Virus record (IMG/VR): IMGVR_UViG_2531839374_000010
Location: 1-9,683 of that record
Length of the DNA: 9,683 bases
Reading direction: 5' to 3' (one strand)
Origin: a virus
Lineage: Duplodnaviria > Heunggongvirae > Uroviricota > Caudoviricetes
Shown: piece by piece, positions 6,629 through 9,683 of the stretch
Layout of the letters: every line of letters starts with the position of its first letter
How positions within the stretch are numbered: the first letter of the stretch is position 1
Position numbers and translations under genes: made by a program
Notes under the pieces: generated by a model
What the model was told of the DNA's origin: nothing
The model's input: the letters and a program-made list of their open reading frames with translations, nothing else
The model's database searches: none

Positions 6629-6644
6629 AAATTGTTAAAGAGCG
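6629..6644 (-). promoter_or_regulatory. boxA-type antitermination element (minus strand CGCTCTTTAACAATTT)
   Basis: Contains the lambdoid boxA core CGCTCTT(T)A and, as remembered, matches the E. coli rrn leader boxA GCTCTTTAACAATTT over 15 nt. It lies in the leader between the putative pL and the cargo ORF, on the transcribed strand. Confidence 0.5.
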
Positions 6645-6744
6645 AAGCGTCCTATGGGCGTTTTGTTGCTAACGAATCATCTTGGACTTCATATGCCCCA
6701 GGCGGCTACTTCGTGGGCATCCTGCCTGTTTGTTGTTTCGTTTT

Positions 6745-6794
6745 GGTACATTGTGTGTCCATGGGGTACATTGTGTGTCCATGGGGTACATTGT
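6745..6794. repeat. tandem direct repeat, 2.5 copies of the 20-bp unit GGTACATTGTGTGTCCATGG
   Basis: Perfect copies at 6745-6764 and 6765-6784, with a partial third at 6785-6794. Each unit carries the GGTACA half-site found in the cI/cro operators. Confidence 0.9.
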
Positions 6795-6797
6795 CAA
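6770..6797 (-). promoter_or_regulatory. candidate leftward early promoter (pL-like): -35 TTGACA (6797..6792), 16-nt spacer, -10 CACAAT (6775..6770), embedded in the tandem repeats
   Basis: Perfect consensus -35 read on the minus strand just downstream of the cI terminator, overlapped by operator-like repeats. The -10 is a 4/6 match. Confidence 0.35.
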
Positions 6798-6799
6798 GT

Positions 6800-6824
6800 A
6801 TAAAAAAACCTGCCGAAGCAGGTT
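6800..6824 (-). terminator. intrinsic terminator of the repressor gene (stem AACCTGC / GCAGGTT, UUCG tetraloop, U-tract)
   Basis: On the minus strand: AACCUGC-UUCG-GCAGGUU followed by UUUUUAUAC, starting 13 nt after the cI stop codon. Confidence 0.7.
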
Positions 6825-6836
6825 CATAAATATTGA

Positions 6837-7511
6837 TTAGGCCTTTATTTTGTATCTTCTTGGTTTTCCCGAGAAAATCACAGTGCCAATTATAGAGCAA
6901 TTACCGTTAATCTTAATGTAGGGCTCAGGCCAGTTTGGGTGTAATGCTTTGAGATAACGCTGTGTTCCATCTTCTATCAATCGCTTGAAGGTGGTTTCGC
7001 CTGTATCGTGCATCAACGCAATAACGTCGTCACCGTGGCAAGCAGGGACTTCAGGATCAACAAAAATCATGTCTCCCGGACGGTACTCATCAATCATTGA
7101 ATCACCAATCACCCGCAAGATATAAGTCATTTCGCCACAGGGTACAGGGCAGGGATAAGTTTCTGCTGTGCTCAAATCAACCTCAGAATAGCCAACTTCT
7201 TTCCATGCTCCGGCCTGTACCCATGATATGACAGGGACTAACGTTATTTGTTTGTTAGTGATTGAAACATCAGGTTTTTTTGTGATGTTCGTTGTCTGGT
7301 GTTCTTGATCGAGCCATCCGATAGGCAGGTCGAAACATTTTTCAATGTGTCGTGCCATGCTGTCACCGATATTTTTAGTAGCACCATCTCCCATAAACCT
7401 GCTGGTCTGGGTTGGCTCGCGATCAATCATAGTGGCAAAGGAAGAATTCCCGCCAACACCATCTCTCAGTTTTCTGGCGTTAGACCGCCGGATGTCATGG
7501 ATTGTTTTCAT
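6837..7511 (-). CDS. CI-like prophage repressor: N-terminal HTH plus C-terminal LexA-type S24 peptidase domain, 224 aa
   Basis: GDSM serine motif and downstream Lys (FKRL) in the C-terminal half; candidate Ala-Gly autocleavage site (…VQAGAW…, about residues 100-101). It is divergent from the cro-like gene across an operator region. Confidence 0.85.
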   Translation of the reverse strand: MKTIHDIRRSNARKLRDGVGGNSSFATMIDREPTQTSRFMGDGATKNIGDSMARHIEKCFDLPIGWLDQEHQTTNITKKPDVSITNKQITLVPVISWVQAGAWKEVGYSEVDLSTAETYPCPVPCGEMTYILRVIGDSMIDEYRPGDMIFVDPEVPACHGDDVIALMHDTGETTFKRLIEDGTQRYLKALHPNWPEPYIKINGNCSIIGTVIFSGKPRRYKIKA

Positions 7512-7526
7512 AACGAAATTAAAACC

Positions 7527-7595
7527 CTTGTACCGCTAAGGTACAAGTATCTTGAAGGTTCATTTCAATCATGTGATGTGTACACTGGAGGTACA
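7527..7595. promoter_or_regulatory. right operator region between cI and cro: O1 CTTGTACC-GCTAA-GGTACAAG (7527-7547) and O2 TGTACA-CTGGA-GGTACA (7579-7595)
   Basis: Two palindromes with the same TGTAC(C/A)-N5-GGTACA architecture in the 90-bp divergent intergenic region. O1 is perfect over 8-bp arms. Confidence 0.6.
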
Positions 7596-7601
7596 TATTG
7601 T

Positions 7602-7802
7602 ATGAAAGCGTATTGGGACTCTTTAACCAAAGAACAGCAGGGTGAGTTGGCCGGAAAAGTTGGCTCAACACAAGGCTACTTACGGCTGGTTTTCAATGGC
7701 TATAAAAAAGCCAGTTTTGTGCTGGCTAAAAAACTTGAGCAATGCACGTCAGGTGCAATTACGAAATCTGACTTAAGACCGGATATCTATCCGAAAGATT
7801 AG
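7602..7802 (+). CDS. Cro-like small HTH regulator (YdaS-family-like), 66 aa
   Basis: ATG at 7602 with GGAGGT 9 nt upstream. MKAYWDSLTKEQQGELAGKVGSTQGYLRLVFNGYKKASFVLAKKLEQCTSGAITKSDLRPDIYPKD; the C-terminal ...LRPDI motif is recalled from Rac prophage YdaS. The 167-aa track ORF 7299..7802 is an upstream over-extension. Confidence 0.75.
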   Translation: MKAYWDSLTKEQQGELAGKVGSTQGYLRLVFNGYKKASFVLAKKLEQCTSGAITKSDLRPDIYPKD

Positions 7803-7833
7803 CAGAACACTTTCAATTTTTAACCACAGAACG

Positions 7834-8403
7834 ATGAGGCTAATCGTGGGTAAGCATCACTGGAAAATAGAAAAACAGCCTGAGTGGTACGTGAAAGCTG
7901 TCAGAAAAACTATCGCAAAGTTGCCGGGTGGTTACGCTGAAGCGGCTGACTGGCTCGATGTAACAGAAAACGCTTTATTCAACCGCCTTCGTGCAGATGG
8001 CGATCAGATTTTCCCGCTGGGATGGGCAATGGTTTTACAGCGTGCTGGTGGCACTCACTTCATTGCTGATGCTGTGGCGCAGTCTGCAAATGGCGTCTTT
8101 GTGTCTCTTCCTGACATCGAGGATGTGGACAACGCCGATATTAACCAGCGTCTGCTGGAAGTCATTGAACAGATCGGCAGTTATTCAAAACAGATTCGTT
8201 CAGCAATCGAAGACGGTGTAGTGGAACCGCATGAGAAGACAGCAATTAACGACGAGCTGTATCTCTCAATTTCGAAGCTGCAGGAGCATGCAGCACTTGT
8301 CTACAAAATTTTTTGCATTTCAGAAAGTAATGACGCCCGCGAGTGTGCAGCTCCGGGCGTCGTGGCGTCGATTGCTTCTGGTTGTGGAGAAACTAACGCA
8401 TGA
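7834..8403 (+). CDS. prophage regulatory protein following cro (YdaT/CII-like, putative), 189 aa
   Basis: Third gene of the cI-cro-cII arrangement. The start is ambiguous (ATG 7834 with a weak ribosome-binding site, or GTG 7846 with GAGG 6 nt upstream). The functional call is positional and from a weak remembered resemblance. Confidence 0.5.
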   Translation: MRLIVGKHHWKIEKQPEWYVKAVRKTIAKLPGGYAEAADWLDVTENALFNRLRADGDQIFPLGWAMVLQRAGGTHFIADAVAQSANGVFVSLPDIEDVDNADINQRLLEVIEQIGSYSKQIRSAIEDGVVEPHEKTAINDELYLSISKLQEHAALVYKIFCISESNDARECAAPGVVASIASGCGETNA

Positions 8404-8442
8404 ACAGTTTAACAACACACTACCGTCGCTCGCAACTGATTG
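8400..8442 (+). pseudogene. 5' stub (14 codons, MNSLTTHYRRSQLI) of the next prophage gene, truncated by IS911
   Basis: ATG at 8400 overlaps the upstream stop (ATGA) and has GGAGA 9 nt upstream. The frame runs straight into the IS911 left end at 8443. Confidence 0.4.
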
Positions 8443-8514
8443 TGAAGTGGCACACTGAATTTGGCCACCTGAACAGAGGTGATATGCTCACCTCAGAACA
8501 ACACAGGTGCTCCA

Positions 8515-9683
<1,169 letters not shown>

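Follow-up and report, generated by a model that had tools for sequence, protein, structure and literature searches.

A perfect 20-bp tandem repeat lies beside the repressor gene in the 9,683-nucleotide stretch of phage DNA analysed here (the window). It raises the question of whether it is a left operator with its leftward early promoter (OL/pL), as an earlier note on this DNA had proposed, a set of iteron-like sites or simply the product of strand slippage. Sequence comparisons lead us to conclude that the repeat region is most probably the OL/pL of a defective lambdoid prophage of e14/SfV immunity, located at the tRNA-Thr next to proA. The control region is otherwise an ordinary one of the standard lambdoid kind, and the exception is a strain-specific duplication within it.

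The prophage and its immunity region

The window DNA is a degraded lambdoid prophage. It contains, in this order, proA, tRNA-Thr (1369-1441, adjoining proA and predicted to be the prophage integration site), a split integrase, an IS, early-left genes, an AT-rich cargo region, the repressor gene, cro, a CII/YmfL-like gene and a further IS. The integrase is divided into two reading frames (1459-2247 and 2163-2621), and the IS elements, both of the IS3 family, occupy positions 3112-4267 and 8479 to the end of the window (9683), the second of them cutting off the replication region. The repressor gene (6837..7511, minus strand) encodes a protein of 224 aa with a C-terminal S24 self-cleaving peptidase domain, identical at 222 of 224 residues (99%) to YmfK (CohE) of the K-12 cryptic prophage e14. 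On its other side, a cro-like gene (7602..7802, plus strand; 66 aa) encodes a homologue of YmfT, whose gene has the same position in e14. Both genes are intact in the window, and the DNA of the repressor-cro module is 94-97% identical to that of phages SfV, SfIV, Ayreon, cdtI, 2H10, PhiR29 and several Stx2c phages.

Operator-like sites on both flanks of the repressor gene

Tandem Repeats Finder detected a single array in the whole window, at 6745-6794, with a period of 20 bp, 100% matches and the consensus GGTACATTGTGTGTCCATGG. Its 2.5 copies agree with the two perfect copies and partial third described before, and one of these units is lineage-specific. The array adjoins the intrinsic terminator of the repressor gene, as had also been noted: a minus-strand stem (6825..6806) followed by a run of T, which is identical in all relatives and annotated as a terminator in the SfV and Ayreon records.

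The earlier note had recognized GGTACA as an operator half-site, and this hexamer occurs 13 times in the window, against 2.8 occurrences expected. It had also pointed to two 17-mers across the unit junctions, at 6754-6770 and 6774-6790, each of which does show two mismatches to TGTACC-N5-GGTACA, the motif found between cI and cro; a third left 17-mer (6734-6750) was absent from its list. Allowing up to two mismatches, the motif has five matches in the 9.7-kb window, where 0.20 would be expected by chance (a 25-fold enrichment), and none of 200 shuffled sequences reached that number. All five are confined to the two flanks of the repressor gene, three on the left (starting at 6734, 6754 and 6774) and two on the right (7529 and 7579). 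On the right, TGTACC-GCTAA-GGTACA (7529..7545), by the repressor start, is a perfect palindrome without mismatches, and TGTACA-CTGGA-GGTACA (7579..7595), with one mismatch, overlaps the ribosome-binding site of cro. On the left, the predicted equivalent of OL1, the promoter-proximal operator, is TGTGTC-CATGG-GGTACA (6774..6790), followed by a duplicated operator copy (6754..6770) in the place of the ancestral OL2, and then by the ancestral OL2 itself, TGTTTC-GTTTT-GGTACA (6734..6750), whose left half is weak but conserved. Each of the three left sites has two mismatches to the motif derived from OR, which counts against reading them as OL.

Several other elements were observed in the same DNA. 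A weak operator-like 17-mer with three mismatches, AGTATC-TTGAA-GGTTCA (7546-7562), abuts the left OR site, and its equivalent has two mismatches in a few relatives; its significance is doubtful because an offset of 17 bp is out of helical phase. We rejected an alternative definition of the operator with half-sites facing the opposite way around a 3-bp centre (GGTACAT-T-ATGTAyC): this arrangement does not occur in OR and is an automatic by-product of two 17-mers placed 3 bp apart. A search for the LexA box CTGT-N8-ACAG in 6600-6850 gave no match within one mismatch.

Conservation of the left flank in homoimmune relatives

By scanning viral contigs for the junction between the -35 element and the terminator, we retrieved 125 loci with 56 distinct left flanks. 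In the phages of the same type and in e14, the left flank reads TGTTTC-N5-GGTACA-TTA-TGTAyC-N5-GGTACA-TTGTCAAG and then the terminator, that is, 1.5 repeat units forming two operator-like 17-mers with a spacing of 20 bp. Since the retrieval pattern itself specified the -35 element and the right half of OL1, their invariance is uninformative. Across the 56 distinct flanks, the block TACATTATGTAyC, which comprises the right half of OL2, the -10 element and the left half of OL1, is 96-100% conserved except at the y position (86% T), and the -10 element is invariant as CATAAT. The left half of OL2, TGTTTC, is 91-98% conserved, as are the hexamers of the OL2 homologue in its general form TGTTTC-N5-GrTACA. 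Conservation amounts to 62-82% in the N5 spacer of OL1 and to 45-64% in the four bases just upstream of the array. TGTAyC is conserved although it lies in the -35/-10 spacer, where a promoter needs no set sequence.

The same pattern extends to both sides of the repressor gene, with four sites at fixed positions in 96 unique sequences. All 96 unique relatives have the OL1 homologue TGTAyC-N5-GGTACA, in which the spacer varies, and both right sites combine conserved hexamers with varying spacers (GTTAA, GATAA, TCAAA, GCTAA and others). Conserved hexamers separated by variable 5-bp spacers form a pattern that looks like that of operators.

The left array changes with the immunity type

Phages SfII and 569R4 have different repressors and a leftward leader in common with the window up to ~6733, a boundary at which the immunity-specific module begins on its left side. 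Where the window has the repeat, SfII carries TTGCGAGATATGCAA and TTGCGATATATGCAA, 22 bp apart, both matching TTGCGTGATAAGCAA in its own cI-cro region; its motif, TTGCG-N6-GCAA, occurs twice left of cI and again in OR. In 569R4, sites of the CTTAGT type are found at both places (3 matches versus 0.19 expected). Since these two phages carry their own OR-type motifs there, the array is part of the immunity cassette and is exchanged along with the repressor. It lies next to the repressor gene where the immunity module ends on the left, and it reads away from the repressor, as expected of a left operator.

A predicted leftward promoter under the operator-like sites

The earlier note had proposed a minus-strand promoter overlapping the repeats, and our consensus scan found it: the predicted pL (6770..6797, minus strand) consists of a -35 element TTGACA (6797..6792), a 16-nt spacer and a -10 element CACAAT (6775..6770), with 10 of 12 consensus matches, and the repressor terminator (6806..6825, minus strand) lies directly upstream of its -35. 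The region has no excess of promoter-like sites in general (8 found versus 6.9 expected), so the promoter call rests on conservation in relatives, not on the scan. The homologous promoter of K-12 e14, TTGACA-16-CATAAT, matches the consensus at 11 of 12 positions and is the best promoter-like site in the kilobase scanned, and the record of phage Ayreon has a promoter annotated on the bases equivalent to the predicted pL. The operator-like sites overlap sigma-70-type consensus matches of 10/12 in the window and 11/12 in K-12. Because the -10 element changed from CATAAT to CACAAT in the window lineage, the promoter may here be weakened or dead. The supplements of three start-site data sets (in vitro run-off, Cappable-seq and S. 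flexneri M90T) contained no entry for ymfJ/ymfK or for the promoter sequence.

Together, the motif on both flanks, the conservation pattern, the immunity swap, the 11/12 promoter of e14 and the Ayreon annotation argue well for the original suggestion that OL/pL stands directly left of the repressor gene. From this arrangement we infer repressor binding, promoter activity and a minus-strand transcription start ~7 nt past the -10 element, at about 6762-6764. Dimers of the 224-aa LexA-like repressor would bind 17-bp TGTAyC-N5-GGTACA sites, the left ones being placed 20 bp apart, centre to centre, on a leftward sigma-70 promoter. OL1 (6774-6790) would fill the spacer between -35 and -10 and, in the relatives, OL2 would extend from just downstream of the -10 hexamer to ~+9; as both sites overlap the core promoter, bound repressor should exclude RNA polymerase. 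With a spacing of 20 bp, about two helical turns, adjacent dimers would sit on one side of the double helix, a prerequisite for cooperative binding. In an SOS response, the repressor would then cleave itself under stimulation by RecA and free pL and the rightward promoter together.

Comparison with known systems

The ymfK(cohE)-ymfJ region of e14 has the same terminator, -35 element, OL1/OL2 layout and OR sites as the window. It differs in having 1.5 units, the -10 element CATAAT and the OL1 left half TGTATC, whereas the window has 2.5 units, CACAAT and TGTGTC, and in the genes downstream, which start with ymfJ in e14 and are replaced in the window by a leader with a boxA-like element and a cargo pseudogene. 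In K-12, the SOS response induces ymfJ, intE and ymfM at a late stage; the time courses of ymfJ and ymfM nearly coincide, with log2 fold changes (ymfJ/ymfM) of 1.3/1.4, 4.05/4.00 and 4.83/4.77, and this late induction has been attributed to the CI-like repressor (PMC11002266). In e14, ymfJ is the first gene downstream of the promoter described above and ymfM belongs to the rightward operon; the late SOS induction of ymfJ is as expected under control by a CI-like repressor.

Among phages, SfV, SfIV, Ayreon, cdtI, 2H10, PhiR29 and the Stx2c phages have the left flank GGGTACATTATGTATCTCATGGGTACATTGTCAAG followed by the terminator, without the 20-bp duplication. The SfV record annotates a 'putative operator region' only between cI and cro, and no left operator. 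In the literature on e14/SfV-type immunity we found no description of a left operator and no binding, footprint or start-site data; earlier analyses of the SfV genome and of e14 (Mehta 2004) may hold predictions.

The OL/pL regions of lambda and P22 likewise consist of several 17-18-bp sites of two-fold symmetry, common with OR, which overlap an early promoter that reads leftward at the immunity region's left end. Their operators show no sequence similarity to those of the window, and they have three left sites, whereas the ancestral e14/SfV-type design has two. Both of these ancestral sites lie at or downstream of the -35 element, unlike in lambda, where the array reaches upstream; the difference is explained by the repressor terminator, which takes up the upstream side. 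In P22, the OL/pL array stands directly beside the repressor gene. The repeat region would be closest to P22 in layout and, by homology, would represent the e14/SfV version of the lambdoid OL/pL. No homologue of N is known in the e14/SfV-type group, unlike in lambda and P22, and SfIV, whose cI and Cro are identical to those of SfV, lacks N, cII and cIII (PMC3851460).

These comparisons provide a concrete candidate operator model for the e14 repressor, with TGTAyC-N5-GGTACA sites, two on each side of the repressor gene, and the left pair over a near-consensus promoter. The same immunity type is used by the Shigella serotype-converting phages SfV and SfIV and by some Stx2c and cdt phages.

A recent duplication added a third left site

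The 2.5-unit array of the window is lacking from the 125 loci, from the phage records and from all 5,426 complete E. coli genomes searched. Over 6620-6840, the E. coli sequence closest to the window, that of ECONIH4, is 87% identical and 20 bp shorter. Two contigs of the viral collection (L126 and L127) carry the window's own unit sequence in 1.5 copies only; compared with window positions 4289-8964 (4.7 kb), L127 shows two mismatches and one gap of 20 bases. The third operator is a recent slippage duplication, since the relatives have 1.5 units and a near-identical contig lacks exactly these 20 bp. Variation in unit number, which the earlier note had suggested looking for among strains, does exist between near-identical contigs (1.5 versus 2.5). 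Its alternative of a slipped-strand duplication thus proved right for the extra copy and wrong for the 1.5-unit core, which is conserved in every relative. As such, the perfect tandem repeat is not the design that is conserved. The exact 20-mer was not found in scans of genome contigs and metagenome contigs, and a BLAST search of the 63-bp repeat alone against E. coli genomes and phages returned nothing, a result that is uninformative given the short query and low-complexity masking.

L126 has the same segments in a different arrangement, with inversions when compared with the window; this points to rearrangement of closely related strains by way of IS elements.

The window lineage acquired an A>G change (ATTATG to ATTGTG) that lengthened a flanking direct repeat from GGTACATT to GGTACATTGT. 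Replication slippage between the two 10-bp repeats GGTACATTGT, 20 bp apart, would have duplicated one operator together with its 3-bp linker, and slippage between these 10-mers yields exactly the duplication observed. The duplicated copy, which is missing in L126, L127 and all other relatives, spans from just downstream of the -10 element (with a one-base overlap at 6770) to ~+9, over the predicted start. It would thereby replace OL2 at this place, with the old OL2 shifted 20 bp downstream and still in phase, and the leader would be longer by 20 nt. An ancestral design with two left sites would have become, in the window lineage, one with three in-phase sites. Whatever a third site may do, the 1.5- and 2.5-unit versions constitute a natural allele pair in near-identical DNA that can be used to measure the effect of an added in-phase operator.

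Decay or silencing of the window lineage

After deletion of one unit, the window was compared with 64 distinct relatives of the same register and differed from them at only 4 of 496 invariant columns. One difference is the A>G at 6773 that turned the -10 element of pL from CATAAT into CACAAT. Two more A>G changes, at 7575 and 7578, fall in a TA-rich hexamer (TGTAATAT to TGTGATGT) that we tentatively consider the only plausible -10 element of the rightward promoter (putative pR), although it lies below the threshold of the consensus scan. The fourth difference is within the repressor gene. A rough estimate of the chance that three of four changes fall within ~12 of 496 positions is <1e-4, a figure that depends on the tentative -10 of pR. 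In addition, an A>G at 6777 converted the left half of OL1 from TGTATC into TGTGTC at a position kept in 55 of 56 relatives. The changes at 6773 and 6777 are repeated at 6753 and 6757.

At both early promoters the -10-like hexamers have A>G changes, which suggest either promoter-down decay or selected silencing and, together with the IS elements and the cargo pseudogene, indicate a prophage undergoing inactivation. The extra operator may be part of this inactivation or a bystander; since the prophage is decaying, it may be functionless. It is possible, if somewhat unlikely, that the region is a relic, with a real OL/pL ancestry and no working switch in this strain, its -10 damaged and its duplication a neutral scar of slippage. 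Such a reading would accommodate the three A>G changes at 6773, 7575 and 7578, the IS elements, the split integrase, the nonsense mutation in the cargo gene and the fact that the extra copy is unique to the window sequence. It fits poorly with the intact repressor and cro genes, the former 99% identical to YmfK, and with CACAAT and the perfect -35 still making 10 of 12 matches; moreover, the duplication preserved both an entire operator and the phase of 20 bp, as a selected gain of a site also would. It seems to us unlikely that the lineage changes arose by selection for silencing a defective prophage with a retained repressor, and not by random decay. If this were the case, the -10 A>G changes and the third in-phase operator over the pL start would clamp the leftward and rightward early genes, among them a division inhibitor of the ymfM type.

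Two further explanations deny the operator nature of the repeat. The first, that slipped-strand duplication affected arbitrary intergenic DNA and that the likeness to operators is coincidental, would account for the perfect copies and for the copy number differing between near-identical contigs; it is nevertheless very improbable, because the 1.5-unit version is conserved with its operator-like pattern in every relative, the motif is both enriched and restricted to the repressor flanks, and heteroimmune phages swap in their own operator motif. The second, iteron-like repeats bound by a replication initiator or another phage protein instead of the repressor, can hardly be right despite direct repeats at about two helical turns, which resemble the spacing of iterons, because relatives have only 1.5 units, their replication gene lies across the immunity region at a distance of >1.5 kb (here it is cut off by an IS) and the repeat agrees in sequence with the cI-cro operators and varies along with the type of repressor. 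An OL/pL of the e14/SfV type stays our preferred reading of the region.

Leader, boxA-like element and cargo region

The leader of the predicted leftward transcript (6620..6733, minus strand) is conserved and common to heteroimmune phages. It contains a boxA-like element, CGCTCTTTAACAA (6644..6632, minus strand), which comes directly after a hairpin and ~120 nt past the predicted start of pL transcription. Its 12-base core GCTCTTTAACAA (6643..6632) matches the boxA core of rrn and lambdoid nut sites at 12 of 12 positions; a search for this core allowing one mismatch would be expected to give 0.09 matches by chance. The element is present in ECONIH4, SfIV, PhiR29 and 569R4 and absent from e14, SfV and Ayreon. 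None of the first leftward ORFs of the relatives encodes an N-like arginine-rich protein. Tests for a known or structured leader RNA (put- or nut-like) gave no Rfam match, the tRNA being the only one at gathering score and matches in 6400-6850 falling far below the threshold, and an unremarkable folding, no better than that of shuffled sequences (z ~ -1).

The conserved leader also includes a mini-ORF, ATG ATT CGT TAG (6669-6680, minus strand), without a convincing ribosome-binding site; it is kept in heteroimmune relatives with TAG or TGA as stop, and reads ATG CGT CGT TAG in Ayreon. The block GGCTACTTCGTGGGCGTCCTGCCTGTT (6690-6733) shows high conservation across most phages belonging to three or more immunity types, and the Ayreon-type left flank diverges through most of it. 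Within this block, the plus strand of 6713-6729 resembles a terminator followed by a T-rich run, an element that could shield the repressor gene from rightward transcription of the cargo.

Beyond the leader, an AT-rich block (5700-6400) contains the cargo pseudogene (5731-6327, minus strand), corresponding to a protein of 198 aa with a hydrophobic N-terminus for which we found no match in Pfam, PADLOC or phage records. The gene is intact in E. coli ECONIH4 (WP_001764244.1) and stopped at codon 47 (6189) in the window. The cargo cassette includes a promoter-like site of its own, and downstream of it comes a hairpin resembling a terminator (5701-5723, scored on the plus strand).
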